Numbered from the stretch's first letter, positions 10,223 to 28,794 are shown. The stretch: DNA of 64,000 nucleotides from Bacilli bacterium (GCA_017441065.1 JAFSAI010000016.1:17599-81598); one strand, 5' to 3'. Notes: generated from the letters alone by a model not told the origin. Numbers and translations: made by a program.

Positions 10223-11335
10223 CTAACTAAGTTCTGCTTTTGAAGTTAACTTAACAGAAACAGTTTTTTCTTTACCATCTCTTATTATTACAACTTTAAT
10301 TGTATTTCCTACTTTATATTTATATAATTCATACCTTAAATATGCTACATTACTAATTTCTTTACCATTTATTTCTTTAATAATATCTCCTGTTTGTAAT
10401 TTAGCATTTTCTGCTGAACTATTTTTAGTAACTGTAGCAATTAATACACCACTAGTAATTTCACCATAATTCGTATATCTATAATATGATGAAAAACGAT
10501 TTATATTAGATACATTATACATTTCTATTCCTAAGAAAGGATATTCTGTTGACTCACCACTTATCATTTGTTCAACTTTTTCAATTGCAGTTTCTATTGG
10601 TATTGCAAATCCCATTCCTTCTACCCCAGTTGAACTTATTTTAGCAGAAATAACACCAATTACTTCTCCATTTGAATCACACAACGGACCACCACTATTA
10701 CCACTATTAACGGCAGCATCTGTTTGTAATACATTCATAACATAATCACTACTTGAATTATTACTTGTAGAAACTTCTACTAATCTTTCTTTACCTGATA
10801 TAATTCCTCTTGTAACTGTCCATGAATAAGCATAATCTAAAGGTGCACCAACAGTAAATGTAGTATCTCCAACTCTTAGTGCTTCAGTACTACCTATATT
10901 AACTGCTTTAATATTGTCTTTAGTTTTAACTTCTAAAACAGCTATATCTGCATATTGATCTCCACCTAAAAGTTTTGCTTCCAATACATCTCCATCAGTA
11001 TAAGTTATTTCAAATTTATCTCCATCTGCAATAACATGATGATTAGTTATAATATATGATTTCTTGTTATCAATTTTATAAACAAAACCACTTCCTGATG
11101 AATATAACATATCATTTTTATATGTTGATACAATAATTACTGAATCATAAACTTTTTCAACTGCATCTGCAATTCCTTTATCAGTTACTGTAACATCTTT
11201 TTCAATTTTTGTTATAGTTTCTTGGAATAAAGTTGGAAATTTGTAAATAATTCCATATACTAAAAATACTCCTAAAAATACACCAAAAATTGTATAAATT
11301 ATTATTCTTGTTTTCTTACCAGAATTTTGTTTCAT
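10223..11335 (-). CDS. htrA: HtrA/DegP-family serine protease with C-terminal PDZ domain
   Basis: TM anchor, trypsin-like catalytic residues (TNHHV, DIAVL, GNSGGPL) and a PDZ segment (LQTGDIIKEINGKEI). Confidence 0.9.
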   Translation of the reverse strand: MKQNSGKKTRIIIYTIFGVFLGVFLVYGIIYKFPTLFQETITKIEKDVTVTDKGIADAVEKVYDSVIIVSTYKNDMLYSSGSGFVYKIDNKKSYIITNHHVIADGDKFEITYTDGDVLEAKLLGGDQYADIAVLEVKTKDNIKAVNIGSTEALRVGDTTFTVGAPLDYAYSWTVTRGIISGKERLVEVSTSNNSSSDYVMNVLQTDAAVNSGNSGGPLCDSNGEVIGVISAKISSTGVEGMGFAIPIETAIEKVEQMISGESTEYPFLGIEMYNVSNINRFSSYYRYTNYGEITSGVLIATVTKNSSAENAKLQTGDIIKEINGKEISNVAYLRYELYKYKVGNTIKVVIIRDGKEKTVSVKLTSKAELS

Positions 11336-12270
11336 TAATTTACCCTCACAATTTCTCTATAATTTATTGGAAATCCCATTGCTTCTAAAACTTTAGTAAT
11401 TTCTATTGTTTCTAATTTTCCATCTAAAACATCTAATTCATAACTTATTTCATTCATCATTAAATGAAAATCTTCATCTTTAAGTATTTGTTTCATAATT
11501 ATTATGATTGAAAATAAATCATTTACTCCGCAAATATATTCATAATCATCATTTCTTGGAATATTTAATAAATCATGATACTTAGTATGTTCAATTTTCT
11601 TATGAGTATGATTGTTAAAGCAAACATCTTCGTGAGCACATAGATTACGATAATTAGCAAGTATTGGTAGATAATTAACTAAACTATTTACTGATACTTT
11701 ATAAATATCTGCAATTTCTTCTTGATCCTCTCTTTGAAGAATTGAATAAAGTTCTCCCACTATTCCAAATGATAATACTTTTACTACTACCCATAAAGGA
11801 ATATATCCATAGTTATTAATATAGTGACTTGTCGCAGCATGTTGTTTACCATTAACATTTATTTGTCTTTTCATTTTTCTAAGTAAATCATTTATTTGTC
11901 TTGATTTATTATAATCTTGAACAAAATTTTCTGCATTTAAATAATGTTGCTCTTTAAATCCATGATTTTTACTCATTACATAAGACAAAATGCTTTTTAA
12001 GTTATTTTCTACTATTAAAATATTTTTAAATAGAATATTTCTTAATTGTCTATCAAAATTAAATATACCATATAATTCTCTAAAGTTAGTACCATAGATA
12101 AATTTTCTACTACCATCTTCTCTTAAGAATAAATGACGATATCCACTTAAAAAGAAATAGTTTTCTCTTAATAACACTTCTTTAGCATAATCAACATCAT
12201 CAATAACTAATCCCTTTTGCTTTAATAATTCAATTTGTTCATCTAAATTTTTAAATGTTTTAGACCCCAT
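11335..12270 (-). CDS. Abi_2 (AbiD/AbiD1/AbiF-like) abortive-infection family protein
   Basis: KTFKNLDEQIELLKQKGLVIDDVDYAKEVLLRENYFFLSGY.. and ..YRNLCAHED match the Abi_2 family layout. Its stop overlaps the htrA start (TAATG). Start taken at the ATG after AGGTGA. Confidence 0.8.
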   Translation of the reverse strand: MGSKTFKNLDEQIELLKQKGLVIDDVDYAKEVLLRENYFFLSGYRHLFLREDGSRKFIYGTNFRELYGIFNFDRQLRNILFKNILIVENNLKSILSYVMSKNHGFKEQHYLNAENFVQDYNKSRQINDLLRKMKRQINVNGKQHAATSHYINNYGYIPLWVVVKVLSFGIVGELYSILQREDQEEIADIYKVSVNSLVNYLPILANYRNLCAHEDVCFNNHTHKKIEHTKYHDLLNIPRNDDYEYICGVNDLFSIIIIMKQILKDEDFHLMMNEISYELDVLDGKLETIEITKVLEAMGFPINYREIVRVN

Positions 12271-12393
12271 ATTATTCACCTATATAAAATTATATCACAA
12301 GAAGCAATATAAATATATCTATTTTTATTGTAAATTTAGTAGTATTTTTGTGTTTTTTATGTGAATTTTGTTATAATTAATTAAGGTGATATT

Positions 12394-13284
12394 ATGCCGG
12401 CATTACATACACATTATAAATTTGGCCAAGATGTTTTAAATAAATTAAATAAACAATTACAAACAAATATAAAAAGTAACGTTAGTTACTATAATATGTT
12501 TAATCAAGGATTTGATAATTTATATTATTATTTAATAAATTGGAAATATTATAGAACTTTTGGAATACAAGCTCATAAACATAATATTGATTTATTTTTT
12601 GAAAATATATTTAATTATATAAAAGATAATAAACTAGAAAATAACTCAGAAATAACAAATATTATTTATGGATTTATAAATCATTACACTTTAGATACAT
12701 TATTACATCCCTATATTAACTATCAAGTTAAAAATTTAAATATACCTCATACTAAAATTGAATTTATGTTAGATAGTAAATTAACTGATAATAATAGTTC
12801 TAAATTTTATAAGACATTAATTCCTAAAATTAAATTTCCAAATAAATTAATTGAGTTATTAAATGAAGTATTTGAAAAAACATATAAAGAAAAAAATATT
12901 GGAAAAATATTTAATAAATCACACAATCTTGGTTATTATATTTATAGATATTTTATTAATGATAAATATGGAATTAAGACTTTCTTATATAAAATAATAG
13001 ATTTTATAATACCAAAAAAAGATATTAAATTTTCCAAAAATACTTTTTATTCAAAACAATTTGATGAAAGACTTTTAAATAGTAAAAAAAATATTTGGAA
13101 TCATCCAAACAATAAAGAAGAAACATATAATTATTCTTTTAATGAACTATATAATTTAGCAATTGAAGTTTGTACTAAACTTAATAATGATGCTTATGAA
13201 GTTTTAAATAATCGAAAAGACTTAGAAGAATTAATTAATAATATAAAATCAATTAATCTTAAAAGTATTCAAGAACTCCTTTAA
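12394..13284 (+). CDS. Zinc-dependent phospholipase C-like / metal-dependent hydrolase family protein
   Basis: N-terminal MPALHTHYKFG and further His clusters (QAHKHN, INHYTLDTLLHP), as in the bacterial zinc-dependent PLC superfamily. Assigned from motif memory only. Confidence 0.4.
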   Translation: MPALHTHYKFGQDVLNKLNKQLQTNIKSNVSYYNMFNQGFDNLYYYLINWKYYRTFGIQAHKHNIDLFFENIFNYIKDNKLENNSEITNIIYGFINHYTLDTLLHPYINYQVKNLNIPHTKIEFMLDSKLTDNNSSKFYKTLIPKIKFPNKLIELLNEVFEKTYKEKNIGKIFNKSHNLGYYIYRYFINDKYGIKTFLYKIIDFIIPKKDIKFSKNTFYSKQFDERLLNSKKNIWNHPNNKEETYNYSFNELYNLAIEVCTKLNNDAYEVLNNRKDLEELINNIKSINLKSIQELL

Positions 13285-13903
13285 CAATAGATTTTACTAA
13301 ATCTTTTTGATAATCTTCTTTTTGAAGTAATTCTCTTTCTTTTGCATTAGATAAAAAACCACATTCAATTAATACCCCAGGTACTTTAATTTTGTTATAC
13401 ATATAAGTATCAGTAGGTATTTTTTTTATATCCCTATTACTGTTTGTAAATTCATTCATACTATTTTGAATGGATTCTGCCAATAACTTATTGTCCATAG
13501 AAAAAAATACTTGAGGACCATAATAACTAGAATCACTTAAGTAATTTAAATGAATGCTTAAATATAAATCCGCATTACTTTCATTTATTAATTTAATTCT
13601 ATTATCAAAATCACTCTTTTTTCTATACTTAGCATTAGGAGTTGATAAATCATAATCACCATCTCTTGTTAAGATTACCTCAGCACCCATACTTCCCAAT
13701 TCTTTTTCTAAAAATAATCCAATACTTAAATTAATATTTTTTTCATATACATTGCCGTAACTAGTTCCCGGATCTTCCAAACCATGACCTGGATCAATAA
13801 CTATAATTTTGCCAGTAAGAGGCATTACAGCTTCAACTTTTAAAGAATACATAATTAATACACCAATAAAAAAGGTAAATAAAACGATAAAATATTTTTT
13901 CAT
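13259..13903 (-). CDS. cwlD: N-acetylmuramoyl-L-alanine amidase, CwlD-like (Amidase_3)
   Basis: Signal anchor, IVIDPGHGLEDPGT, SIHLN and ECGFLSN motifs; size and layout match germination-specific CwlD. Confidence 0.75.
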   Translation of the reverse strand: MKKYFIVLFTFFIGVLIMYSLKVEAVMPLTGKIIVIDPGHGLEDPGTSYGNVYEKNINLSIGLFLEKELGSMGAEVILTRDGDYDLSTPNAKYRKKSDFDNRIKLINESNADLYLSIHLNYLSDSSYYGPQVFFSMDNKLLAESIQNSMNEFTNSNRDIKKIPTDTYMYNKIKVPGVLIECGFLSNAKERELLQKEDYQKDLVKSIVKGVLEYF

Positions 13904-18264: not shown

Positions 18265-18871
18265 TTATTTGGATAATACTTTTTTATTCCATGAACGCTT
18301 ATTACAATTAGGACACTTCATATATCTTGTTCTATTAATATGCATAGCCCATAAAACACTTTTAAAAGTTGGAACATATTTATGATGACATTTACTACAT
18401 TCATAATATCCTGCAATTTGTTCTATCTTTAAACAATATGTAACGCCTATTATAAAAGGTATAAATCCAGTGATTATAATTAACACTCTATATATATCAT
18501 TCATTTCTACATAAGATGCAACAAATACACAAGTTATAACTATTATTGAAACTAATACACCAATAAATATTTCCAAACTTAATAACTGTTTGTCTTTTTG
18601 TTCTTTAAGTTTTACCATTTCTAATAAATTTTTTTCTAATCTTTTCTCGTTATCTTTCATATCTACCACTTCTCCACTAAATAAATCATTAATAGTAATA
18701 TTTAAAATTTTGCATAATAAAGGTATTATTCCAGAATCTGGCATACAAATACCATTTTCCCATTTTGAAATTGCTCTATCAGTAATACCTAATTTTTCTG
18801 CTAATTCAATTTAAGTAATTTTTTTCTTTTCTTCTTTCACTAATAAATTTACCTATCTTAATTTGATTCAT
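18265..18871 (-). pseudogene. Disrupted XRE-family HTH / TM / zinc-ribbon regulator
   Basis: ATG at 18871 gives MNQIKIGKFISERRKEK, then the frame is lost in an A7 run (T-run 18819-18825 on plus). The HTH continues in the +1 frame (..IT*IELAEKLGITDRAISKWENGICMPDSG..) with an in-frame TAA (18811-18813) where CAA is expected, and joins the tracked ORF 18265-18744 (TM helices plus CSKC..CPNC). Confidence 0.7.
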
Positions 18872-18990: not shown

Positions 18991-19017
18991 AAAAAAGCCA
19001 GATAAGAAACTGACTTT
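18991..19017 (-). terminator. Rho-independent terminator
   Basis: Minus strand: AAAAGTCAG-tttctta-TCTGGCTTTTTTT. Same hairpin family as 20106, 22329, 25934 and 27863. Confidence 0.6.
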
Positions 19018-19027
19018 TATAATATTT

Positions 19028-19924
19028 TTAATTATACATTCTAGCTTTAGAATCTTTTTGCATTTCATAACCATATTCAAATATATATGACATACTAAAT
19101 ATAATTAAAATTTCTAATATATTCATTAATTCAAATGGACTATTTCCTTCTGAAACACCTAATAACAAGTTAATTATAATATCTGATAAAGGTGTTATTA
19201 TAATTAAAGCAATCATTAAATAAGAAATATTTTTTATAAATTTTACATTATCTAAAGTAAAGGGTGTATTATTATCTTTTATATTATTAAATAACTTTTC
19301 TACATAACTTAATATTATTATCATAATTATTATATCTATCAATAAAAACACTAATGCAATTTCAATATAACCAATGATTTTAGTATTAGAATTATTTTCA
19401 AGCAATTCAATTACATCATAAGATTCATCTTCAATATCAAATTCACCAACAACAATATCATGAATTTCAATTTTATTTTCATCTATTATTTTTATATTAT
19501 CTGTTTTAAATGCTATTTCATTATTCTTAATTTCAACATTATTAACTACATAAGGAACTAATAACATTGCAAATATAATAAATGGAATAGCTACCTTTAA
19601 AATAATTGCACCAATTTTTCCTATTAAGCTAATTATATTACTTAAAGCTTTTACTTCCTTTTGTTTCTTTTCATTAAACTTAACTACATTCATCACAATT
19701 TCTGTATCTAATGAAGAAATATCTGTCATATCAGTATGAACAAGATCATTTAATTTACAATTAAATATCTTACATAATTCCAAAATATTGTTCATTTCTG
19801 GATAGGATTCTCCATTCTCCCATTTTGAAACAGATTGTCTTGTAACATTAACTTTTTCAGCTAATTGTTCCTGTGACATGTTTTTATTTTTTCTAATTTG
19901 TCTTAAATTATCTCCAAACTTCAT
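19028..19924 (-). CDS. XRE-family HTH fused to a multi-TM (DUF2975-like) domain
   Basis: MSQEQLAEKVNVTRQSVSKWENGESYP HTH_3 motif, followed by about four TM helices. Confidence 0.75.
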   Translation of the reverse strand: MKFGDNLRQIRKNKNMSQEQLAEKVNVTRQSVSKWENGESYPEMNNILELCKIFNCKLNDLVHTDMTDISSLDTEIVMNVVKFNEKKQKEVKALSNIISLIGKIGAIILKVAIPFIIFAMLLVPYVVNNVEIKNNEIAFKTDNIKIIDENKIEIHDIVVGEFDIEDESYDVIELLENNSNTKIIGYIEIALVFLLIDIIIMIIILSYVEKLFNNIKDNNTPFTLDNVKFIKNISYLMIALIIITPLSDIIINLLLGVSEGNSPFELMNILEILIIFSMSYIFEYGYEMQKDSKARMYN

Positions 19925-20105
19925 TAGATTACTCCTTTCTAAATATGAGTATAATATTATATAATCTTTTTTACTATCTATTTTCAGTTGCGATTACATA
20001 AAAAGCAAAAAATTTTTTTCATCCAATTCTACACCTACTACCACTTACTATATATTAGTATATCACGCTTAGCAACATTATGGTAAAAAATACATTTCCT
20101 GACAA

Positions 20106-20135
20106 GCAAAAAGCCAGATATAAAATCTGACTTTT
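20106..20135 (-). terminator. Rho-independent terminator (junction-module copy)
   Basis: Minus strand: AAAAAGTCAGAT-tttat-ATCTGGCTTTTTGCTTGTC. Confidence 0.65.
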
Positions 20136-20236
20136 TAAACTTTAAATAATTATGAATATTTATTAAATTTACTTTTATTGGTGCACAATTACAGTGTTTT
20201 TGTATCTTATTATTCAACTAATAAATTATAATTTGA

Positions 20237-22201
20237 TTACTTGTTTTTTTCATATTTAGCTACTATTGTCATATTTCCTTCAGCTATATTTTGTTTATGT
20301 ACTACTTCCTTATTACTATTTTGTTGTACCCATCCTACAAATGTGTAACCTTCTTTTATAGGGTCTTGTGGAACATTAATCCAACTTCCTATATATTGTT
20401 TGTATATAAAGTCTGGTTGACCATTTCCTAATTTAAATGTTATTGTAGCAAATCCATTTGCCACAGTACCTTGTGCTTCTGAAAAATTTACTGTTGTATT
20501 TTCGGTTGCTACACTGCCATTAAGATAGAATTTTCCTTCTTTATTTGTCCAACCTTGAGCACCTTCGTCACCAATATATTTTTCTGGAAATGTTAAATCA
20601 ATCGGTGTTCCTTTTTCAACCCACTCAAAAGATTCATCGCCATAGTAGTATGTTATTAGAATTTTATCTTTTCTAAATTCATTTATTTTATTTAAAGATA
20701 TCATTCCATATATTGATAATACTATTGATACAACAATAATTAATATTTTTACTATTTTATTTCTTAATTTGAAATTTTTTCTAAATAATATAATCAATCC
20801 AACTAACAATACTACTGAAATTAGCATCATTAACCCATTACTTGAGATAATATACCAAAATTTAGAAGCAACACTAATACTCATTATCGCTAATAAAATT
20901 AGTACTATTGTAGTTACAATATTTAATATTAAAAGTATTTTCTTTTCTTTTGCCTCAGCAATCTTACTTTTTATTATCTTTTCAGCTAGTTCCTTGCATT
21001 CTGGCTTAATTTTTTCAATATCTTCTTCTTTTATATACTTACATGATTCTATAGCTTTTAATGATACATCTAAAATATTGTGGATATCTTCTTTTGAAGC
21101 GTTTTGAAATTTGCTTTTTGTAACTTCTAAAATTCTAGTTACTATTTGGTTTCTAAAAATATACTTATCATTTTTTAGATAAATAACAAGTTTTACATCT
21201 CCACCATCATATTCAAATGAATTATATTTTGCATAATAATTCATTAAATTTTCTAAAGCTTCGTTTTGTAGATTTTCATCCAATTCAAAATCAAAAAATT
21301 TTATTGCTTTATCAAAATTTTCTAAATCTTCTTCTTTTAAGTCCGGAATTACTGCACAATAATGACTATATATTAACGGATTGTCATTTAAGTCATTTCC
21401 TGTTTTATCAATAAAATCGACACAGATTAAATTTTTAATTTTTGCTGATAATAAGTCTTCAAAATTGTTATTAAAATTTACAACCGTTTTATTTCTAAGT
21501 TTTTTTAATCCTTCTACTGCTTTTTTATTTGCAATATCCACAGGAATAGATCCAATTAATGACGCAGCGTGACGGGCACCGGCTACCATTCCTTCATGAT
21601 ATGCTTTATCGCTAAAACCTTGAGATACATAACCTGTTACTCTTTCTCCATAAATTGGATCATTATAACTATCAAGTGTTACATAAGTACTTTTTTTACT
21701 ATCTATGTCTGCTAGGGACGATATTAATGATTCTTGTGCTTCCATTGCACCTTCTCTTTGTGCTTCAGCCATTTTTATATTATATTCAGATAACGTGCTT
21801 TGAATATCTCTTCCTAAAGTATCTATTGCCCCATTACATAATGTTATAAATTTTTCTGCTACTTCTTGTGTTAAATCAAAATTGTTATAAGCGTATTTAA
21901 TAAAGTCAGTAAAATAGATAATTGCATTATTTACAATGTTTTTGCATGATGCAGTAACATCTTCTGATACTGATACACTATTATTAAAGTTATTTCTTGC
22001 ATTATATAATATATTACTAAATTCTTTTGAATTTCTGTTTATTTTTGATAGTTCAATAGTATATTTACCTATTTTTATTGTTTCTTCTTTTATTTTGCTT
22101 TTGTAATCATAATCTCTTTTAGGTATAAATGTGTAATTTTCTAAGTTTATTTTTTGCCCCATACTTAAAAGATAATTTTCAATCATGTCTTCTACTTTCA
22201 T
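20237..22201 (-). CDS. Large membrane protein: unknown cytoplasmic N-domain, 3 TM helices, C-terminal Listeria/Bacteroides-type (Flg_new) repeats
   Basis: 654 aa. GGAGG RBS. TM cluster at about aa 420-510. C-terminus TITFKLGNGQPD..EGYTFVGWVQQ resembles the InlB B-repeat/Flg_new fold. The N-terminal 400 aa have no recognisable motif. Confidence 0.6.
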   Translation of the reverse strand: MKVEDMIENYLLSMGQKINLENYTFIPKRDYDYKSKIKEETIKIGKYTIELSKINRNSKEFSNILYNARNNFNNSVSVSEDVTASCKNIVNNAIIYFTDFIKYAYNNFDLTQEVAEKFITLCNGAIDTLGRDIQSTLSEYNIKMAEAQREGAMEAQESLISSLADIDSKKSTYVTLDSYNDPIYGERVTGYVSQGFSDKAYHEGMVAGARHAASLIGSIPVDIANKKAVEGLKKLRNKTVVNFNNNFEDLLSAKIKNLICVDFIDKTGNDLNDNPLIYSHYCAVIPDLKEEDLENFDKAIKFFDFELDENLQNEALENLMNYYAKYNSFEYDGGDVKLVIYLKNDKYIFRNQIVTRILEVTKSKFQNASKEDIHNILDVSLKAIESCKYIKEEDIEKIKPECKELAEKIIKSKIAEAKEKKILLILNIVTTIVLILLAIMSISVASKFWYIISSNGLMMLISVVLLVGLIILFRKNFKLRNKIVKILIIVVSIVLSIYGMISLNKINEFRKDKILITYYYGDESFEWVEKGTPIDLTFPEKYIGDEGAQGWTNKEGKFYLNGSVATENTTVNFSEAQGTVANGFATITFKLGNGQPDFIYKQYIGSWINVPQDPIKEGYTFVGWVQQNSNKEVVHKQNIAEGNMTIVAKYEKNK

Positions 22202-22328
22202 ATATATTTTTACCTCCAGACCTTCTATTACAATTTTATTATATCATAAAACTTCTTATTATAAATATACCTAATAAATCGTTATTTGAAAACATCTTGA
22301 TATAAACCAAAAATGCATTTTTAGACAA

Positions 22329-22358
22329 GCAAAAAGCCAGATATAAAATCTGACTTTT
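22329..22358 (-). terminator. Rho-independent terminator (junction-module copy)
   Basis: Same hairpin as at 20106-20135, followed by GCTTGTC. Confidence 0.65.
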
Positions 22359-22466
22359 AAAACATATGAAATAATTCTTAACGTTTACTAAATTAGCTTC
22401 CCTTTATTTATGCGGGTTTACAGCATTTTTGTATGATACTTGTATGATACTGCAGTGTCTTCAACC
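22359..22466 (-). repeat. R-block copy containing a pseudo 3' end of rpsI (att-like direct repeat)
   Basis: 22378-22397 TTAACGTTTACTAAATTAGC aligns with rpsI 27935-27955 TTAACGTTTTGAGAATTGTGG. The flanks align with 25962-26060, and a degenerate core TGTATGATACTTGTATGATAC lies at about 22430-22450. Confidence 0.75.
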
Positions 22467-22574
22467 GATGCTAAAGTATCTTAGTAATTTTTTACTTATT
22501 TATAATTTGGCAACAGCTTAATAAATTTAATAAAAATATTTTTATATTAGTTAAATATACTAAGTTTTCTATTT

Positions 22575-23015
22575 TTAAATTTTTTCTTCTATGCTTTTAA
22601 TATATTTATCTAAACTCCTATGATTTTTAATTTCAGAAACAAAATCTAATTTGAACTGACCTAGATATTTAATAATTAAATCTGCATATCTATCCAAGTT
22701 TGAATCGTTTACGACTTCTTCTAAATATTTATTTATTCCTTTAGTTTGATTTACTCTTTCAACATAAAAAGCTAATAAATTACTTGAACCTATTTTTTCC
22801 TTTGCAAGAAGAACTATTGATTCTAAATTTTCTCTTGAACAAAAATATCTTGGTTTATAAACTCCTGCCATAGAAAACATTATTAATACACTACCAATAA
22901 AAAGTTTATCTGTACCATCATTTGGAAATGTTTTTTGTGTAAACTTTATTAAACCATCAATTGTATTATTTTCTGAATAATCATCATATAATTCCATTAA
23001 AATCCTGTTAATCAT
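22575..23015 (-). CDS. Hypothetical protein (146 aa), no recognisable domain
   Basis: Intact ORF with AGAGG RBS; predicted helical and acidic. Last gene of the cassette bounded by the pseudo-rpsI repeats. Confidence 0.55.
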   Translation of the reverse strand: MINRILMELYDDYSENNTIDGLIKFTQKTFPNDGTDKLFIGSVLIMFSMAGVYKPRYFCSRENLESIVLLAKEKIGSSNLLAFYVERVNQTKGINKYLEEVVNDSNLDRYADLIIKYLGQFKLDFVSEIKNHRSLDKYIKSIEEKI

Positions 23016-23241
23016 TTTTTACCTCTTTTTAATTATTAAATTAATTTTATTTAATCAATTTATTTTCCAAAATCTTTTTTTACCCTAATAACAGAACTAA
23101 TACTAGCACAACTAACTTCTAAATTTTATAAAGATTTCGAAAATATTTTGTCTCCTCAATTTATTCTTTTACTTTTTTTATTTCTAATCGATAAATTACA
23201 ATTTATTATTATCACATTATTAAAATATATTTTGTTATTTA

Positions 23242-24015
23242 TCATATCATCATATCAAACTCCAATTGTCTTTCTTTCACTTCTAGCATTTCTTTACAAG
23301 CAATAGATAATGAATCTACTACTTTGATTGATGATGGATTCAAATATTTATAATTAGATTTCGAAAAAATATAATTAATGATCAATACATATGGCTCATA
23401 CTTTTTTAAACAATAACCATCTGCTACAAAAACATGTTTATTATAGAAATCAATACAATCGAAGTTTAAACGTGAATATTCGTATTTACAATAAAACAAC
23501 TCCAAATATGATTTTTCAAAATCAATATTTTTAGCATCGTCTAACAATTTGTCAAAGTCTTTTTCTAATTTAATTATTTCTGTATTTTCTAATAATCTTT
23601 TTCTATAATTAGGGAGAAATATTCTTATATCACACTCTTCACAGGCTGGCACATGTCCTTTAAAATATTCATAACAATCAACACTTATTTCCTCATCTAA
23701 ATTGTGAAGATTTATTAATTTACAATATCTTTTACCATTTTTCTCTACTACATAAAAATGAAAATATCTTTGCCCATACCAACCTTTATCATCTGTAGTA
23801 TTTAATCTATATCTACATTGTAGTAACACATTTTCGTCTTTATCTATAGTATAATATGTATCTTTCCATTGAATGTTTCTATCAACTTGAGACATATCAT
23901 TTTGATGAAATTCTCTTACATAATCTCTTTTAAAAGATTTATTTTCAGTTACTTCTTTCTTCTTGTGAGTATCATTTTTTAATTTATTTTTCCTACTCCA
24001 TAACATCTTTGTCAC
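23242..24015 (-). CDS. Hypothetical protein (257 aa), Cys/Tyr-rich, no recognisable domain
   Basis: Intact ORF with AGAGGTGA RBS, driven by a copy of the shared promoter module. Basic N-terminus and CEECD motif; no family assignable. Confidence 0.6.
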   Translation of the reverse strand: MTKMLWSRKNKLKNDTHKKKEVTENKSFKRDYVREFHQNDMSQVDRNIQWKDTYYTIDKDENVLLQCRYRLNTTDDKGWYGQRYFHFYVVEKNGKRYCKLINLHNLDEEISVDCYEYFKGHVPACEECDIRIFLPNYRKRLLENTEIIKLEKDFDKLLDDAKNIDFEKSYLELFYCKYEYSRLNFDCIDFYNKHVFVADGYCLKKYEPYVLIINYIFSKSNYKYLNPSSIKVVDSLSIACKEMLEVKERQLEFDMMI

Positions 24016-24140
24016 CTCTACAAATTACTATTTATCTACCAGATACATTATAACATATATTTTAGAGAGTTAGAGTGCAAGAACGACTAGTGGCTAGATT
24101 TTATAATGGTTTTCGTTATATCATGTATGCTGTGTGTATG
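24016..24140 (-). promoter_or_regulatory. Shared promoter/operator module, copy 3 (diverged)
   Basis: Core TGTATGCTGTGTGT at 24124-24137, CATTATAAAATCT, direct-repeat-like AGAGTGCAAGAAC (24072-24084), and -10 TGTTATAAT. Confidence 0.5.
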
Positions 24141-24174
24141 TTACGCTAAGCGTCTCTGAAGTGTCTTAAATACT

Positions 24175-24708
24175 TTATTTATTTCGATTATTATAGAAGT
24201 CTACTATAAGTTGATATAATTGTACCAACAATATACTTATTTCTGTTAATGGAATACTTATACTAAATCTTTTTATTATTTTAGGTTTTCTTTTATAATT
24301 TTCATTTGTATCAAAAACTGTTAACGATTTTCCTGGTTCAAATATAAATTTTGAATGAGAAACTGCGTTGCGAATATGACCTACAAAATCCCCATTTTTG
24401 TAATCATCTGTATTTAAAACATAAATTTTACTATCTATCTTATCCTTTATAAAATCATTAATTATTTCATATTGCAATTTATCCGCATATATTTCCTTTG
24501 GAACGACGAAAAAAATATACATTAAAATCATTACAACGCCTTGAGAATCTAAAGTCATTTTTCTCAACGTCTCCTTAAATTCAAAATTATAATTTTTTAA
24601 AAAATAATCTGATTCAAGAAAATCTTTAGATTTTAATTCCATTAGTAAAATTCCTATTGCAATAGATTGTACTACTAGATTATCTTTATCATCAATTTTT
24701 ATTGTCAT
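24175..24708 (-). CDS. Small HEPN-like protein (Rx4H motif)
   Basis: 177 aa. GHIRNAVSHSKF contains R-N-x3-H, the HEPN RNase signature. The start overlaps the upstream radical SAM gene by 17 nt. The HEPN call rests on this motif only. Confidence 0.55.
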   Translation of the reverse strand: MTIKIDDKDNLVVQSIAIGILLMELKSKDFLESDYFLKNYNFEFKETLRKMTLDSQGVVMILMYIFFVVPKEIYADKLQYEIINDFIKDKIDSKIYVLNTDDYKNGDFVGHIRNAVSHSKFIFEPGKSLTVFDTNENYKRKPKIIKRFSISIPLTEISILLVQLYQLIVDFYNNRNK

Positions 24709-25768
24709 GTAACCTCCTTGAATTTTTCATATATATTTTTCTGCAAAGTGGTTCTACCCTTTTTCCACCAGGTGTTTTTACTTCTTCTAAATTTTCATAA
24801 ATACTATAATGTTTAATTCCATATTTTTTCATTGTGGCTATATCCAATTCTTTGAATGCTGGACATGGCAATACTGTTCCATCAAATTTTATATCTAGTT
24901 TTTCTAATCCCGCATTACATTTATGTGAAGTATCTCCCATTAATGGTATCCCAATTCTTATATGACCACCATATAAATTTCTAGAATTATTTAAAAGCTT
25001 CATAAATTCTACTAATTCACTTTCACTTAACATTAAATCATTTGCATTTTTCGACCCTCTACCTTGAGGTACAAAATTAAGTATGCTAATATTATTTATT
25101 CCAGCAATTTCTAACATTTCTAATATATCTGGGATTTCTCTATAATTTGGTTTCATCGGAATAAAATGAACATCCGTTTCTAATCCAACAATTGAAGCAT
25201 TCAATAATGAATCCAATAAGCAAGCATGCTTTTGTCTATTTCTTCCCATTAAATATTCATCAGTTTCATGTTCATATGCTTGATAATCAAAAACTATTTT
25301 ATCTAATCCCATTGATTTTAGCAAAATTAGCTCTTCTTTGGTTATAGGGCTGAATGCAGGTGGATGTATTATTCTTTCATAATAATTTTTTACGTTATTT
25401 TTTAATCTTTCGTTCCAAGATTCATGTTTTTCTATTTCTGCTAATTTAAGATTCATTTCTTTGATATAAAAATCTATTGCTTCAGCAGATAGTGGTAAAG
25501 ATTTTTTTATACCACTTGTAAATATTACTGTCCTTATTCCAAATGATTTAGCGTATTCAACCATCCTTAATAAATCAGGATGTAAAAAAGGTTCTCCACC
25601 ACTTAAAGATAATTCCTCTATTCCACCCTCACTTATAAAATAATCTATAACTCTTTTAAAATCATCAAATGAAATAATTTGCTTTTTATCAATACATGAA
25701 TTTGAAGAACAAAACTTACATTCATTTGGACATGATTCAATTATTTCAAAACATAAATCTTTTACCAT
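24692..25768 (-). CDS. Radical SAM enzyme with C-terminal SPASM/twitch-like Cys motif
   Basis: CPNECKFC (CxxxCxxC), SLSGGEPFLHPDL, and C-terminal HKCNAGLEKLDIKFDGTVLPCP. Start taken at the ATG after GGTGG (MVKDLCF..). Confidence 0.85.
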   Translation of the reverse strand: MVKDLCFEIIESCPNECKFCSSNSCIDKKQIISFDDFKRVIDYFISEGGIEELSLSGGEPFLHPDLLRMVEYAKSFGIRTVIFTSGIKKSLPLSAEAIDFYIKEMNLKLAEIEKHESWNERLKNNVKNYYERIIHPPAFSPITKEELILLKSMGLDKIVFDYQAYEHETDEYLMGRNRQKHACLLDSLLNASIVGLETDVHFIPMKPNYREIPDILEMLEIAGINNISILNFVPQGRGSKNANDLMLSESELVEFMKLLNNSRNLYGGHIRIGIPLMGDTSHKCNAGLEKLDIKFDGTVLPCPAFKELDIATMKKYGIKHYSIYENLEEVKTPGGKRVEPLCRKIYMKNSRRLHDNKN

Positions 25769-25780
25769 AAAACCACCCAT

Positions 25781-25961
25781 TTATTAATTTTTATTATATC
25801 ATAAATTCACCGAAAATTAGAACGCGAGAACTACTATCTTCAAGATTTTATAATGCTTTGCTCAATCTCGTGTATGATGTATGTATGCTGTGTGTTATCT
25901 TTAGGGTAAAAATAGCCTATTTTTTTTATTGCAGCAAAAAAGCCCGTAAATACGGACTTTT
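25781..25961 (-). repeat. Terminator-core-promoter junction module, copy 2
   Basis: Aligns over about 170 nt with 27723-27890: terminator 25934-25961, core TGTATGCTGTGTGT 25882-25895, AGAACGCGAGAAC 25819-25831, and -10 TGATATAAT (25793-25801). Confidence 0.8.
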
Positions 25962-26060
25962 GAAACATTTGAAATAATTCTTAACGTTTTGTAAATTAGT
26001 GTCCCCGTATTTATGCGAGTTTGCGGAGTTTTTGTATGCTGTGTGTATGCTACACAAACG
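25962..26060 (-). repeat. R-block copy containing a pseudo 3' end of rpsI (att-like direct repeat)
   Basis: 25981-26001 TTAACGTTTTGTAAATTAGTG matches rpsI 27935-27955 at about 18/21 positions. A second core TGTATGCTGTGTGT lies at 26033-26046 with the flanking inverted repeat TGTGTA..TACACA. Confidence 0.8.
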
Positions 26061-26101
26061 GTCTTAATAGGACCTTAAATAATTATAAAAATTTTTTAAA
26101 G

Positions 26102-26131
26102 AAAAAAATCAACCTGATTAAGTTGACTCTT
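26102..26131 (-). terminator. Rho-independent terminator of the 26.1-27.7 kb cassette
   Basis: Minus strand: GAGTCAAC-ttaatcag-GTTGATTTTTTT. Confidence 0.6.
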
Positions 26132-26531
26132 TTCCACAAATATGCAACTAACACTAAATTGTATACAAAATAATATTAATTGTTTACACTGCATGGCTAA
26201 TCACTTCCACACCCATAATTTACTATTTGCATTGATTAATAGCGGCTAAACGGGTTTAGCAAAGAAAATTCATTTATAATCAAAAAAACTTTATCATGAT
26301 TGTAACTCCAGAAAAATATCGTGAAATTATAGTACCAAGATTTTTGTTTATAAATTTCGAAAGAACTTCCTAAACTAAGAGTGTCCCGCTAAAGGTAAAG
26401 CGCCTTGTAATAAGGCATCCCTCCTTCGTGTAGTATAATCTTTTAAAACTATACCACTAGAAAAAGTGTACCATTTTTAGGCAAATTTTGCAACACAATC
26501 AAACGTTTTTTCGCAGTTTAATACAGATTTT

Positions 26532-27704
26532 TCAATCTGAAAATTTATCATTTTGCATATATCGCCAATGAAAACCACCACATCTATAATTTCCATTTAC
26601 AGAAGCTATTATACTACAAGGTTTCTTATTAACAAATTCTGCTGCAGATTTAACTGATTCAAAAGTTTTATTTAACTCTACACAAAAAACCTTTTTATAC
26701 GCTTTAGTATATCTGCATTTTGGGCAACCGCATCTATCTTTACCTGTTCTTGATGCCACAACTGAAGAATATGAATTTTTGCACTTAGGACAAATCCACC
26801 ATGTTTTTTTGCCAGTATGTGCTGATATTTTATCCGGTGTTAACGGATAATTTTTTTCATAATCCCATTCCTTTGAAATTTCAGGATATAAATAATCTAA
26901 AGAATTAAAACCTATTGTAGAAAGGACTTTCCTACATATATCAGCATTATCCCTATTACAATCGACATCAATATTCATATTACAACCATATTCATTATTT
27001 AAAATTTCAATAATTTGATTTATTGGTTCACTCATATGCGTTCCATTTGTAGTCGGCTTAGGAGTTATAATACAATGATGAGAACTTTCCATTATAGGAC
27101 ATCTTGGTTCCCTTATACGAATTATTGTAATTCCGTTCTTTAAACAAATATTATTTTTAAAATTATCTTTTGCTACGTCTTTATGCCATCTATAACCGTC
27201 ATATTCTATACCCAAATTTAAGGATGGAATAAATATATCTATTTCTTTTCCGTCTAAAAAATCAGGTCGATATTGTTCTTGTATATCTTCAAAATATTTT
27301 GATAAATAATAGAAAATCATTTTTTCGGGAATTGATACTCGAGACATACAAATTCCACAACTTAATGATTTATAAGCTTTTAAATTGCTTTCCAATATCA
27401 CTTTAGTTCTTCCACAAAGACATTCACAGAGCCATTGTTTTTCATGCGCTTGAGATTTTGGCTTAATATAATCATGTGCTTGTTCCTTAACGGTTAAATA
27501 ACCAAATACGTTCCCAATTTTTATTGGTTTTACATGCTTGCATCCATCTCTCCCAAGGCGTTGATTTTTATGAAACCAATCTGTTGTAATTTCAACTTCA
27601 TTTTCGCAAACTTGGCAAATACAGCGCCATTTACTATTACCAATATATTCTTTAGCTATAAGCGTGCCTGATATTTGACCTGTCAATTCTTGCAAACTTC
27701 CCAT
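26532..27704 (-). CDS. Zinc-ribbon-rich protein with a central Vsr/DUF559-like PD-(D/E)XK nuclease core and a phage-type C-terminal DNA-binding tail
   Basis: Repeated W.C.C..C../SCGIC ribbons. EIDIFIPSLNLGIEYDGYRWH resembles the PD-(D/E)XK Vsr/DUF559 core. YPEISKEWDYEKN..WWICPKCKNSY is a DUF4379-type ribbon. The C-terminal FESVKSAAEFV..GGFHWRY is common in homing-endonuclease-like phage proteins. Start at the ATG after GGAGG (MGSLQ..). Confidence 0.6.
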   Translation of the reverse strand: MGSLQELTGQISGTLIAKEYIGNSKWRCICQVCENEVEITTDWFHKNQRLGRDGCKHVKPIKIGNVFGYLTVKEQAHDYIKPKSQAHEKQWLCECLCGRTKVILESNLKAYKSLSCGICMSRVSIPEKMIFYYLSKYFEDIQEQYRPDFLDGKEIDIFIPSLNLGIEYDGYRWHKDVAKDNFKNNICLKNGITIIRIREPRCPIMESSHHCIITPKPTTNGTHMSEPINQIIEILNNEYGCNMNIDVDCNRDNADICRKVLSTIGFNSLDYLYPEISKEWDYEKNYPLTPDKISAHTGKKTWWICPKCKNSYSSVVASRTGKDRCGCPKCRYTKAYKKVFCVELNKTFESVKSAAEFVNKKPCSIIASVNGNYRCGGFHWRYMQNDKFSD

Positions 27705-27722
27705 AATATTAACCTCCAACAA

Positions 27723-27890
27723 TTTATATTATATCATAAATTCATCGAAAAATAGAACGCGAGAACGACTAGCTTTTAGGTTTTATAATGGTTTGATTAA
27801 CATTGTGTATGCTGTGTGTCATCTTCAGGACAAAATTAGCTTATTTTTCATAATTTAGACAAGCAAAAAAGCCCGTAAATACGGACTTTT
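27723..27890 (-). repeat. Terminator-core-promoter junction module, copy 1 (directly after rpsI)
   Basis: Terminator 27863-27890, core TGTATGCTGTGTGT 27806-27819, AGAACGCGAGAAC 27754-27766, -10 TGATATAAT (27728-27736), then GGAGG RBS. Confidence 0.8.
27863..27890 (-). terminator. Rho-independent terminator of rplM-rpsI
   Basis: Minus strand: AAAAGTCCGTA-ttt-ACGGGCTTTTTTGC, 45 nt after the rpsI stop. Confidence 0.75.
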
Positions 27891-27934
27891 CGAAACATTG
27901 AAATACGTAATATTGTACCAATATTGGTAATTTT

Positions 27935-28354
27935 TTAACGTTTTGAGAATTGTGGAGCACGACGTGCTTTCTTTAAACCATACTTTTTACGTTCTTTAAC
28001 TCTTGGATCTCTTGTAACGAAACCAGCAGTTTTAAGAATATGTCTATAACTATCTTCTCTAGTTTGATCTGTATTTGCATCAAATTCAAGTAAAGCTCTA
28101 GTAATAGCTAATCTTATAGCACCAGTTTGTCCTGAGAAACCACCACCGTTAACTTTAACTTCGATATCGAATCTATTTTCATTATCAGTTGCTACTAATG
28201 GTTGTTTTAAATCCATTACTAATGTAGCATAAGGCATATATTCATCAACATCAATACCATTAACAGTAATTTTACCAGTACCACCAACTAATTTAACTTG
28301 TGCTACTGATCTTTTTCTTCTACCTGTTGCAGTCCAAATTTGTTTACTTGCCAT
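27935..28354 (-). CDS. rpsI: 30S ribosomal protein S9
   Basis: [10 protein letters not shown].., ..[26 protein letters not shown]-terminus. Confidence 0.97.
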
Positions 28355-28362
28355 AAGTCCTC

Positions 28363-28794
28363 CTAATCAATATCCATAGCTACTGGTTTTTGAGCTTCAT
28401 GTTTATGTTCACTACCAGCATAAACAAATAACTTTTTACCCATAGCTCTACCTAATCTATTATGTGGAAGCATACCCTTAACAGCTCTTTCAAGCATTTC
28501 TTCAGGATATTTTTCAATCATAACTTCAGCAGTTCTTTCTCTTAATCCTCCTGGAAATCCAGAGTGATTATAGTATTTTTTGTCTTGTAACTTATTACCA
28601 GTTAACGCAACTTCTTTAGCATTGATAATAATTACATTGTCACCACAATCAATGTGTGGAGTATAAGTTGGTTTATGTTTTCCACGTAAAATGTGTGCTG
28701 CTTTTGTTGCAACTCTACCTAATGGTTTACCAGCTGCATCAATAACATACCAGTTTCTTTCAACTGTTTCTTTTGTTTGCATAAATGTTTTCAT
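28363..28794 (-). CDS. rplM: 50S ribosomal protein L13
   Basis: [33 protein letters not shown].. matches canonical L13. Confidence 0.97.

Follow-up and report, generated by a model that had tools for sequence, protein, structure and literature searches.

An array of small, uniform gene cassettes downstream of rpsI in uncultured Bacilli

Layout and cargo of the rpsI locus

The 64-kb window described here, the whole stretch of DNA that was analysed, has a base composition of 25% GC. Its host is one of the uncultured low-GC gut Bacilli. On the minus strand, the rplM-rpsI operon is followed by a series of small gene units and then by an ancestral border; the features, from rplM onward, are as follows.

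28363..28794, minus strand: rplM (ribosomal protein L13), first gene of the rplM-rpsI operon (ORF, PF00572)
27935..28354, minus strand: rpsI (ribosomal protein S9) (ORF, PF00380)
27863..27934, minus strand: docking site, the genuine rpsI 3' UTR and intrinsic terminator A (RNA fold -12.8 kcal/mol, z = -4.4)
27723..27862, minus strand: L module A (repeats, alignment, nhmmer E = 6e-36)
26532..27722, minus strand: cassette 1 cargo, a 390/396-aa protein with a DUF4379 treble-clef zinc finger (Pfam 6.8e-16)
26111..26531, minus strand: non-coding but structured tail of cassette 1, bearing a terminator of its own at about 26100-26130 (fold of 26054-26531, z = -4.4)
25934..26110, minus strand: junction B, cassette-end side, with R module, pseudo-rpsI end, short UTR and terminator B (repeats, alignment, nhmmer, fold)
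25781..25933, minus strand: L module B, predicted promoter for the radical-SAM/HEPN cassette (repeats, alignment, nhmmer E = 6e-36)
24175..25780, minus strand: cassette 2 cargo, a radical-SAM protein and an overlapping HEPN-like protein (Pfam, NCBIfam)
24016..24174, minus strand: junction X, R-type 11-nt repeats joined straight to the remainder of an L module and its promoter (repeats, alignment, nhmmer)
22575..24015, minus strand: cassettes 3 and 4, orphan genes (ORFs; partial L by nhmmer)
22329..22574, minus strand: junction C, with R module, pseudo-rpsI end, short UTR and terminator C (repeats, alignment, nhmmer, fold)
20237..22201, minus strand: cassette 5 cargo, a 654-aa membrane protein with a Listeria-Bacteroides repeat domain (ORF and domain searches)
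20106..20236, minus strand: junction D, a decayed R module and pseudo-end (20136-20236) and terminator D (20106-20135) (repeats, alignment, fold -13.8 kcal/mol)
18991..19924, minus strand: distal unit, an XRE-type HTH/transmembrane regulator (19028-19924) and terminator E (18991-19017) (ORF, domain, fold)
10223..13903, minus strand: ancestral distal border, with a cwlD-like amidase (13259-13903), an Abi_2-family gene (11335-12279) and htrA (10223-11335) (Pfam and synteny)

The distal border is syntenic with rpsI in at least 45 species, at gaps of 70 nt to 9 kb, and in at least eight related species the site is empty, with rpsI 70-170 nt from its ancestral neighbour (an Abi_2-like gene, then htrA). 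The corresponding gap in the window is 15.6 kb. Rather than the decayed or satellite islands, two or three at the least, that were proposed in an earlier note on this DNA, it holds mini-cassettes of uniform build, five or six as a minimum, which measure 0.6-2.3 kb and have an L (promoter) and an R (end) module each. Beyond the distal XRE unit we found no further R or L modules.

Cargo proteins of neighbouring cassettes are mutually unrelated. The types of cargo named in the earlier note were recovered. The protein of cassette 1, read there as Zn-ribbon and PD-(D/E)XK-like, is a zinc-finger protein, with a nuclease-like DUF2726 match that falls below threshold. The non-coding tail of this cassette gave no match in Rfam. 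Cassette 2 comprises radical-SAM (24692-25780) and HEPN-like (24175-24708) genes, and the two orphans that follow, of 257 aa (23242-24015) and 146 aa (22575-23015), have a partial L module between them (about 23093-23154) and no family matches. The description of the cargo as defence-like holds only loosely. PADLOC returned no complete known defence system; its matches were partial, linking the radical-SAM core with pVip models and the XRE protein with HTH models. Cassettes of relatives carry diverse cargo, including phosphatases, kinase-like P-loop proteins, a methyltransferase, and ASCH, CitG-like and MBL-fold proteins. The presence of HEPN, ADP-ribosylglycohydrolase and Apyc1-like MBL cargo is suggestive of defence; the remaining cargo is metabolic or of no known function.

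A conserved module at the cassette junctions

The last 17 nt of rpsI (27935-27951) are the stretch copied at cassette ends, and by nhmmer rpsI and the R modules are homologous over no more than the final 16-17 nt of the gene. We confirmed rpsI-terminus-like stretches at 25981-26001 and 22378-22397, in the same orientation as 27935-27955, and five hairpins at 27863-27890 (A), 25934-25961 (B), 22329-22358 (C), 20106-20135 (D) and 18991-19017 (E). As minus-strand RNA, the strand of the genes, the hairpins fold at -9 to -14 kcal/mol and run into a U-run, whereas their plus-strand folds are weaker (-4.6 to -8 kcal/mol); the strong minus-strand folds and the U-run therefore identify them as intrinsic terminators of minus-strand genes. 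GCTTGTC follows three of the five. The spacer thought to be the same at every copy is common to copies B and C, but the genuine rpsI site has 25 extra nt with TACCAATATTGGTA, a palindrome at 27916-27929 inside the genuine 3' UTR.

Taken alone, the 21-nt similarity to the rpsI terminus is no better than chance in the window: allowing up to six mismatches, four 21-mers were observed against 4.1 in shuffles, and allowing up to four, nine 17-mers against 12.7. This result, together with the abundance of similarly shaped terminators in AT-rich genomes, is what favours immobile repeats with no specific link to rpsI, be they a generic dispersed intergenic repeat or terminator family or the products of tandem duplication on the spot. 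The actual repeat unit is far longer than the ~21 nt first proposed. The segments 22344-22450 and 25947-26053 are 80% identical over 107 nt, 25786-25884 and 27721-27819 are 84% identical over 99 nt, and a 76-nt repeat family has three copies in the window. The motif TGTATGCTGTGTGT has four exact occurrences, all in this region, where 0.33 are expected, and in a sister strain (L010) a 90-nt direct repeat of 95.6% identity extends from 16 nt inside rpsI through the terminator. On the strength of the longer repeats, the motif and this direct repeat, the repeats are real; a further relative (L073) has a 48-nt direct repeat that includes the rpsI end, at 94%.

The inter-cassette junction is thus a conserved module of ~350 nt. 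It opens with an R block and the copied 17-nt rpsI end, continues with a 3' UTR and an intrinsic terminator, and closes with an L block that ends in a promoter. Junction alignment, repeat analysis and nhmmer agree on this layout. L modules span ~150-170 nt and contain one to three 11-nt direct repeats, an operator-like conserved block and an extended -10 promoter; in L module A these parts are GCTTGTC, the 11-nt repeat ACACACAGCATACA, a CAATGT and TTATAAAAC-CTAnAAGCTAGTCGTTCT block, and the extended -10 promoter TGATATAAT, predicted to serve the DUF4379 gene. R modules, of at least 110 nt, contain two 11-nt direct repeats and an invariant block of ~26 nt. At junction B the two repeats lie at 26033-26053, followed by an invariant ATAAATA..CTAATTTA block and the pseudo-rpsI end at 25981-25997; at junction C the repeats are of AGTATCATACA type and the pseudo-end occupies 22378-22394. 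Junction X has neither an rpsI-like core nor a terminator. Its R-type repeats (24124-24140) adjoin a segment that nhmmer aligns to L-module positions 44-151, and it looks like a deletion between repeats.

The only robust hairpin at the junctions is the intrinsic terminator. RNAalifold predicted no pairs (0) on 12 R modules, giving no sign of a conserved RNA structure in R. Folded as single-stranded DNA, junction B gave z = -2.9 and -2.7 on its two strands, and inspection by eye found no compensating changes in the junction folds, the R block being invariant and the terminator sequences variable. Tandem 11-nt repeats in both arms and an R module without conserved RNA structure fit putative protein-binding DNA sites. 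The pseudo-ends themselves look composite: in every case the 8 nt on the left belong to the element type (TAATTTAGT or TAATTTACA), and the last 9 nt match the codon choice of the host (AAACGTTAA or AAGAGATAA) in six of seven species; L096 is a hybrid. An attR hybrid site would be expected to look like this.

Variation among strains and species

Strains with identical RpsI and RplM proteins fall into four haplotypes. Their first cassettes encode, respectively, the DUF4379 protein, the radical-SAM and HEPN pair, an ADP-ribosylglycohydrolase, and an unannotated protein with an HD-like motif and no Pfam match. The haplotypes diverge directly past a common rpsI-UTR-terminator stretch, and the docking site is identical in all four except for one UTR substitution in the window (caatatt vs caaaatt). 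The first cassette varies between strains, and the site is therefore a genuine gene-swapping hotspot. Cassette 1 is present in some strains and absent from others; cassette 2 comes first in strains of one type (L002) and in another species (L121). With empty sites in related species and alternative cargo in sister strains both found by comparing relatives, the insertion hotspot proposed at the rpsI 3' end is borne out.

In several other species an R module borders unrelated cargo beside rpsI, and 12 aligned cassette ends share the invariant block and the rpsI-like end. All R copies found lie downstream of rpsI or on short cassette-only contigs, and among more than 100 loci, covering up to 10 kb on each side of rpsI, no module occurred elsewhere than downstream of the gene. 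The earlier note had named an invariant gene order in related strains and a generic dispersed repeat as the two findings that would count against it; gene order varies between strains, and the copies are tied to rpsI. Together with the confinement of module copies in the window to 20.1-27.9 kb, the strain polymorphism, the empty sites and the unrelated cargo of neighbouring cassettes, this distribution largely refutes the dispersed-repeat or duplication account, which we now regard as barely credible. REP-, BOX- or MITE-like dispersed repeats were rejected as candidates on the same two counts, position in the window and restriction to the downstream side of rpsI in the loci fetched.

The main rival that does not invoke a dedicated recombinase, and which we consider rather unlikely, holds that the ~350-nt modules and rpsI are portable homology for RecA-type recombination, with cassettes gained, lost or swapped by double crossover with the DNA of other strains or by deletion between repeats, and with module conservation reflecting promoter, operator and terminator functions. 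Several observations fit it. Strains with 98-99% identity in their coding regions differ by 12% in the L modules of one and the same cassette, a mosaic pattern (88% identity in L) indicative of ordinary recombination or gene conversion between modules. The indel that separates L002-type strains from the window ends within the longest identical tract, the 28-nt terminator; junction X resembles a deletion between 11-nt repeats; and the UTR and terminator after the pseudo-end resemble the host's own UTR (L073, L121, L096 and L099). However, homologous recombination does not account for how unrelated genes first gained R and L flanks, for a ~26-nt block and rpsI-like 17-mer that stay invariant though RpsI is only ~65-80% identical across species, or for the element-type left half and host-type right half of the pseudo-end. 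Moreover, modules in one genome are only 80-84% identical, leaving few tracts long enough for efficient exchange.

Divergence of cargo between species (HEPN 71%, MBL 62%) is about equal to that of RpsI; some of the cassettes may therefore be old, having been inherited vertically. The point at which exchange seems to occur is not consistent: within the species it falls at the terminator's 3' edge, and in comparisons with L036, L097 and L099 at the stop codon. Two Logan contigs (L110 and L111, 1957-1958 nt) consist of the DUF4379 cassette with ends in the 28-nt terminator repeat; such ends are compatible with a circle and equally with an assembly broken by the repeat. Among the contigs examined, none showed a circular or attP form.

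Recombinases and phage contigs

As first reported, the window has no recombinase. Pfam detected no recombinase domains among the ORFs of the 64-kb window, where no tyrosine or serine recombinase, transposase or HUH enzyme and no match to PF00589 was found; precomputed Pfam matches were used as well for ~18-37.5 kb, and for the cluster of ribosomal-protein genes at 57.7-64 kb those on a matching contig. About 100 related loci likewise yielded none within 10 kb of rpsI, in a screen by motif search with Pfam on selected ORFs only, which is weaker than a full domain scan. The lack of a recombinase in cis at any locus screened is also as expected if homologous recombination moves the cassettes.

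Integrases do occur at rpsI in phage sequences. In one IMG/VR contig (L144) a tyrosine integrase adjoins the rpsI stop and terminator. Two others (L148 and L150) contain only the last ~48 nt of rpsI, the terminator and an apparent integrase 3' end, and a fourth (L145) has the same rpsI-end copy and terminator but stops before any integrase-like reading frame. For the L and R modules we detected no significant match in the arms of the phage contigs that bear an integrase, or in known phages or plasmids.

Such prophage fragments, and the accretion and subsequent decay documented at rpsI in streptococci (PMC5357655, PMC5704250), lend support to classical decay, in which a few larger ICEs, IMEs or prophages, each bringing its own integrase, would have inserted at rpsI in the past and then shed their recombination and transfer genes, leaving the units as CIME remnants. 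We find this improbable. No integrase, relaxase, mobilisation, xis, replication or phage-gene remnants were found in the cassettes; one- or two-gene units of such small size and uniform architecture recur with varied cargo in many species; and one species has four alternative first cassettes.

A model for cassette capture

The explanation that we put forward, and hold to be an even call, is that integrase-less, integron-like mini-cassettes have accreted at the rpsI terminus and are moved in trans. The cassettes, all co-oriented, would have piled up immediately downstream of rpsI, each cassette end (R, rpsI-like core, UTR and terminator) acting as a mimic of the genuine rpsI terminus. Joined to an L module, such an end would form a complete attP layout, with arm-type repeats flanking the core. 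A new cassette would be inserted next to rpsI as its core recombines with the genuine one, and older cassettes would be displaced distally and then decay. Catalysis would most likely be provided in trans by a site-specific recombinase encoded elsewhere; our best guess is a heterobivalent tyrosine integrase, as in rpsI-targeting ICEs, IMEs and phages. Homologous recombination between modules may later delete or reshuffle cassettes, of which junction X and the L002-type deletion are candidate examples. The terminators would shield each unit from rplM-rpsI read-through, and each cassette would be expressed from its own promoter.

More tentatively, the locus may represent an undescribed integron-like gene-capture platform in Gram-positive gut bacteria, with promoter-bearing mini-cassettes, a ~350-nt module and an unlinked recombinase, clade-wide in uncultured Bacilli. 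If so, the recombination module would consist of 11-nt arm repeats, the ~26-nt invariant block, and the rpsI-terminus mimic with its terminator; cassettes would dock successively at the rpsI end, served across the whole clade by an unlinked, possibly host-domesticated recombinase.

Comparison with known systems

Small, co-oriented, mostly single-gene cassettes of unrelated functions, a recombination-type conserved element at the 3' end of each, docking at a fixed site, insertion that appears to be proximal and a high turnover among strains are all shared with integrons and with CALINs, the attC clusters that have no integrase. Unlike integrons, the locus has no intI, and its docking site is the end of a ribosomal protein gene, flanked by rplM-rpsI upstream and cargo downstream. 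Nor are there attC sites: attC is an imperfect palindrome that forms a hairpin with conserved R and L boxes, whereas R here has no conserved structure (ssDNA fold z ~-2.8, no covariation). Integron cassettes are mostly promoterless and lie under a common promoter, whereas each cassette here has an extended -10 promoter and a terminator. In Firmicutes, integrons are reported to be all but absent.

Staphylococcal SCC and pseudo-SCC elements, which occupy the 3' end of rlmH (orfX), are likewise tandem, with gene-end direct repeats; some have no recombinase genes and are mobilised in trans, and some carry defence cargo (PMC11470126). They differ in target gene, in size (many kb), in the Ccr large serine recombinases encoded in the array or genome, and in having no common promoter/terminator junction module. 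Temperate phages with an rpsI-end attP (L144, L145, L148 and L150) resemble the cassettes in their rpsI-end copy, terminator and arm region; unlike the cassettes, they are full phage genomes with integrase, repressor and excisionase-like genes, and they copy 48 nt of rpsI rather than 17 nt. The phage contigs have a higher GC content, so their hosts differ.

The closest precedent for the target lies in streptococci. The earlier note was not aware of rpsI as an integration target, but its 3' end is used by three tyrosine-integrase families (Tyr_4, Tyr_5 and Tyr_7) of ICEs and IMEs, which accrete there in tandem (PMC5357655, PMC4701971, PMC5090054, PMC5704250). As in those accretions, insertion targets the final nucleotides of rpsI and is co-oriented on its downstream side, the gene end recurs in direct repeats, and tandem arrays include integrase-less members (PMC5357655, PMC5704250, PMC5090054). 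The cassettes share with integrative elements of gene 3' ends both this mode of insertion and presence/absence polymorphism with empty sites, but not a recombinase in the window or the ~100 related loci. The streptococcal elements span 5-40 kb, carry int, xis, relaxase or conjugation genes and give rise to CIMEs by decay; in the cassettes nothing attests descent from an element with integration or transfer modules. The host lineage here is another one, in which no integrase-bearing member was seen at rpsI, and the units are of 0.6-2.3 kb, with one or two genes and a dedicated promoter-containing module. The rpsI 3' end was thus already known as an attachment site, whereas the cassette format with its ~350-nt module differs from known elements.

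Organization of the rpsI locus

The window has a GC content of about 25%, and its minus strand carries all genes from 14.7 to 36 kb, including rpsI and the cargo genes that lie downstream of it in the direction of transcription.

Genes at the rpsI locus of the window
28363–28794, minus strand, rplM
27935–28354, minus strand, rpsI
26532–27722, minus strand, DUF4379 zinc-finger protein
24692–25780, minus strand, radical-SAM protein, overlapping the HEPN-like gene
24175–24708, minus strand, HEPN-like protein
23242–24015 and 22575–23015, minus strand, two orphan genes
20237–22201, minus strand, 654-aa membrane protein
19028–19924, minus strand, XRE-type regulator with transmembrane segments

The GC content of the cassettes (22–30%) is the same as that of the flanks, and we therefore rejected a compositional anomaly; a tRNA or tmRNA as integration target was rejected as well, as none is present in the window. 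Rfam gave no family at gathering thresholds across the whole window, and no match at E up to 1 within 18.9–28 kb.

Three rpsI-like stretches and five hairpins lie where the earlier note had placed them. The rpsI-end repeats described there are real, but the 21-nt match alone is not significant in this AT-rich window, and the repeats are far longer: a 107-nt repeat at 80% identity (22344–22450 and 25947–26053), a 99-nt repeat at 84% (25786–25884 and 27721–27819), and a 76-nt family with three copies in the window. The 14-mer TGTATGCTGTGTGT occurs in four exact copies, confined to the array region, against 0.33 expected. As RNA, the hairpins reach −9 to −14 kcal/mol on the gene strand, where they include a G-U pair and precede a U-run, and are thus clearly more stable than on the opposite strand (−4.6 to −8 kcal/mol); we take all five to be intrinsic terminators of minus-strand genes.

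A shared junction module

Aligning the junctions in gene orientation revealed one modular unit of four parts between cassettes.

Parts of the junction unit, in gene orientation
Part 1, R module (110 nt or more): AAAAATTACTAAGATACT block, a tandem pair of 11-nt direct repeats and then AAAA, invariant block CATAAATAAAGGGANGCTAATTTA
Part 2, rpsI-like end (pseudo-end): last 17 nt of rpsI, the Gln codon being replaced by TAA
Part 3: 3' UTR and terminator
Part 4, L module, about 150–170 nt: one to three 11-nt repeats like those of R, then CAATGT, the conserved TTATAAAAYCTAGAAGCTAGTCGTTCTAGCGTTCTAAT block with an inverted repeat, extended −10 promoter TGATATAAT

The L-module promoter is followed by a ribosome-binding site and ATG, and the unit recurs at the genuine rpsI site, where rpsI coding sequence takes the place of R. 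At junction X (24016–24174), R-type repeats are joined directly to the remaining L module and the core, that is, the rpsI-terminus sequence, is absent; the two orphan genes are separated by a partial L, and junction D (20106–20236) is a decayed copy of the module. No further R or L modules were found past 18991. For the DUF4379 cassette, with its short-UTR end TTTCAAAAGTCCGTATTTACGGGCTTTTTTGCT and its own L module TGTCTAAATTATG, a circle junction would be TTTCAAAAGTCCGTATTTACGGGCTTTTTTGCT joined to TGTCTAAATTATG.

That R might descend by decay from a more extended copy of the 3' part of rpsI was rejected, as nhmmer homology ends at the last 16–17 nt, and so was an attC-like folded site, single-stranded DNA folds on both strands being only mildly better than shuffles. 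RNAalifold on 12 cassette ends predicted no pairs within R module RNA. The R block is partly complementary to the left arm of the terminator, and no compensating changes between the two were seen; we dropped the idea of R–terminator pairing because R is invariant and the terminators vary.

The R–core–L junction is arranged like a complete attP: its core is common to the rpsI terminus, and each arm has 11-nt direct repeats. The earlier note was not aware of rpsI being described as an integration target; its 3' end is in fact well established as an attachment site, targeted by three tyrosine-integrase families of streptococcal ICEs and IMEs, tandem accretions with decayed partners have been described there, and CIMEs are integrase-less derivatives retaining attL and attR (PMC5357655, PMC4701971, PMC5090054, PMC5704250). 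Our preferred reading, held with roughly even confidence, is that the array consists of integron-like or CIME-like, integrase-less mini-cassettes. These would dock at rpsI and be mobilized in trans by a recombinase whose gene lies elsewhere, and homologous recombination between modules would contribute deletions and reshuffling. That a few large elements of the classical kind have decayed here is hard to reconcile with how uniformly the mini-cassettes are built, and we consider it distinctly improbable.

Cassette variation within the species

Contigs encoding exactly identical RpsI and RplM proteins fall into four haplotypes, which provide the alternative cargo that the earlier note had suggested looking for in related genomes.

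Haplotypes among contigs with identical RpsI and RplM
Haplotype 1, first cassette DUF4379: window, L001, L005, L009
Haplotype 2, radical-SAM/HEPN directly after rpsI: L002, L003, L004, L006
Haplotype 3, ADP-ribosylglycohydrolase, then a CitG-like gene: L010
Haplotype 4, unannotated protein, HD-like motif, without Pfam match: L117

All four haplotypes agree from the stop codon of rpsI to the end of the terminator, save one substitution in the window's UTR, and divergence begins immediately after GGGCTTTTTTGCT, into one of two L types. The cassette end in haplotype 3 is a 90-nt copy, 95.6% identical, of the segment from 16 nt inside rpsI through the terminator, and several contigs (L007, L008) break right at the divergence point. 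Two Logan contigs consist of the DUF4379 cassette bounded by a 28-nt terminator repeat, which could be a circle or an assembly break.

L modules look mosaic: strains with 98–99% identity in their genes share only 88% in these modules. Such mosaicism favors an explanation in which homologous recombination acts by itself and the modules are conserved because they serve as promoters and terminators; we rate this explanation as rather unlikely.

Several features of the cargo deserve description. A 478-nt non-coding stretch 3' of the DUF4379 gene (26054–26531, minus strand), with its own terminator near 26100–26130, folds far better than shuffles (z = −4.4), has no Rfam match, and may be an ncRNA partnering the DUF4379 protein. 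The radical-SAM and HEPN-like genes (window 24175–25780; related locus L121, 8941–10534) overlap by 17 nt and travel as a pair; in related locus L073 (10718–11260) the HEPN gene alone is intact. Resemblance to viperin and SPASM maturase models is limited to the N-terminal radical-SAM core, homologues of the HEPN protein are scarce, forming just 8 clusters in a set of 5.8 billion proteins, and the pair is a candidate two-gene system of unassigned role. Distal-end regulators of the array seem to be undergoing decay: an XRE-type HTH gene (18745–18870) upstream of the ORF at 18265–18744 is frameshifted in an A-run in the window strain and intact (202 aa) in L002, and the XRE regulator with transmembrane segments carries a nonsense codon in the L003/L114 strain (L114 14938–15000).

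Variation between species

Comparison of 80 rpsI loci from related species revealed the same border genes at a distance from rpsI in at least 45, often a cwlD-like amidase and then an Abi_2-family gene and htrA; gene order in B. subtilis is also rpsI-ybaK-cwlD. The gap between rpsI and the border is 15.6 kb in the window and several kb in other species, and at least eight species (L048, L057, L059, L060, L063, L064, L080, L084) have a gap of 70–170 nt. These last are empty sites, which the earlier note had suggested seeking in relatives.

R-bounded cassettes lie beside rpsI in L036, L073 and L121 and in nine metagenome contigs retrieved with the R block as search pattern, and R-bounded cargo in relatives includes histidine phosphatases, P-loop kinase-like proteins, a SAM methyltransferase, an ASCH protein and unknowns. 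In L096 (2601–3284), an R-bounded MBL-fold cassette directly follows rpsI, and its 62% homologue is the window gene at 17490–18206. The radical-SAM/HEPN cassette is found again in two other species, flanked by L and R each time, and in both the UTR and terminator that come after the pseudo-end are copied from the rpsI gene of the host itself.

Searches of phage and plasmid collections with the R and L modules gave no match, and scans of viral contigs with the R block, terminator and 11-mers returned nothing or unrelated higher-GC chance matches. All R copies detected in the fetched loci lie downstream of rpsI or on short contigs carrying cassettes only, and a generic dispersed repeat, the alternative raised in the earlier note, is essentially excluded.

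The variable region holds further features of its own. The window MBL-fold gene at 17490–18206 has a precomputed match to PF23023 (Anti-Pycsar Apyc1) and sits far distal, with no modules around it. In a mouse-gut MAG (L045, 12426–17773), TTACAATTTAGGAG or a close variant lies just 5' of eight different genes in the variable region past rpsI; this motif, with 9 copies in the locus versus 1.1 expected, resembles the rpsI end CACAATTTAG and may be a second, promoterless type of cassette boundary. The rpsI ORF of L091 (183–643) is cut to 119 aa, with about 30 C-terminal residues lost, within 40 nt of an R module and pseudo-rpsI end, reflecting either an imprecise deletion or metagenome misassembly. 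In L087 (10420–10760), a single small membrane-protein gene lies directly past rpsI between two identical 28-nt copies of the rpsI terminator, a minimal insertion with terminator duplication and without an R module. A 314-aa Abi_2-family gene (PF07751; window 11335–12279 and at least 45 related loci, 52–85% identity) adjoins htrA and forms the distal border of the variable region clade-wide, a conservation not usual for genes with an abortive-infection annotation. Between the amidase and Abi_2 genes, a 296-aa plus-strand ORF of very low GC (12394–13284; 16–18%) weakly matches Zn-dependent phospholipase C (E = 2e-4), and opposite-strand ORFs downstream of rpsI in L037, L039, L055 and L079 are similar to it in N-terminal sequence.

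The exchange point

Within-species and cross-species lines of evidence disagree on where exchange happens. Within the species, the haplotypes fit a cassette of L, cargo, R, pseudo-end, UTR' and terminator whose insertion point is the 3' edge of the genuine terminator. Across species, sequence comparisons point to a putative crossover in the last few nucleotides of rpsI, because what follows the pseudo-end is unlike what follows the real stop codon (L036, L097, L099) and because the pseudo-end is split into element-type and host-type parts. Its left 8 nt are always element-type and its last 9 nt match host codon choice in six of seven species; the pseudo-end of L096 is a hybrid. The state seen in L002 could be secondary, produced by homologous recombination inside the terminator.

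Search for a recombinase

That the window lacks an integrase, as the earlier note held, was borne out by Pfam searches of nearly all its ORFs of at least 120 aa (our own runs and precomputed results), which returned housekeeping families only and no recombinase domain; unannotated ORFs of the window gave none even at E up to 1. ORF motif screens in 90 loci found no recombinase, and motif screens with selected Pfam runs across about 100 related loci found none adjoining rpsI. On the strand opposite rpsI, Pfam identified in neighboring ORFs only an IS-like HTH protein (L071), UvrC, SpoIID and VanY, the IS-like fragment being the sole related find in the roughly 100 loci. The 10 kb past the window's right edge contains the ribosomal-protein operon. 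The lack of a recombinase in the window and in the related loci screened also favors homologous recombination alone.

The IMG/VR contig L144 (1–4031) carries the rpsI stop, a terminator and an opposite-strand tyrosine integrase (PF00589, 4.5e-23), together with a CI-like repressor with a Cro-like gene. Contigs L148 and L150 have only the last ~48 nt of rpsI, then a terminator and an apparent integrase 3' end, and L145 has the same rpsI-end copy and terminator but stops before any integrase-like reading frame, each showing the attP or attR layout of a phage. The layouts of these four contigs independently confirm rpsI as a phage attachment site. All four come from other hosts with higher GC, and no significant similarity links their arms to the L and R modules. 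The L144 integrase was on that account rejected as a lead, and also because the listed members of its large family are rumen Clostridia and not this clade. Xer/dif-like, IS200/IS605-like and IS110-like mechanisms, considered for the UTR palindrome and end hairpins, were set aside as no supporting enzyme or conserved dyad was found.

Relation to known systems

The hotspot principle and the target gene rpsI are already known; the combination of self-promoted miniature cassettes, a junction module of about 350 nt common to them, the lack of a cis integrase at the locus, and this host clade was not found described in the literature searched. Read conservatively, our results widen the known rpsI hotspot, so far one of ICEs and IMEs in streptococci, to include tiny cassettes that lack an integrase and belong to a distant clade. 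Should the cassettes indeed be mobile, they would represent integron-style stockpiling and exchange of single accessory genes in Firmicutes/Bacilli, where integrons are not known. The array would then offer a handle for mining accessory genes and candidate phage-defense or counter-defense genes from uncultured gut and rumen Bacilli, by reading from rpsI to the cwlD-like/Abi_2/htrA border or by searching for the invariant R block.

Among described elements, we liken these integrase-less mini-cassettes to CIMEs, and close analogies are found in the SCC elements at rlmH (PMC11470126) and in integrons. In contrast to integrons, the docking site here is the terminus of a ribosomal protein gene, and the junction includes a promoter and a terminator.
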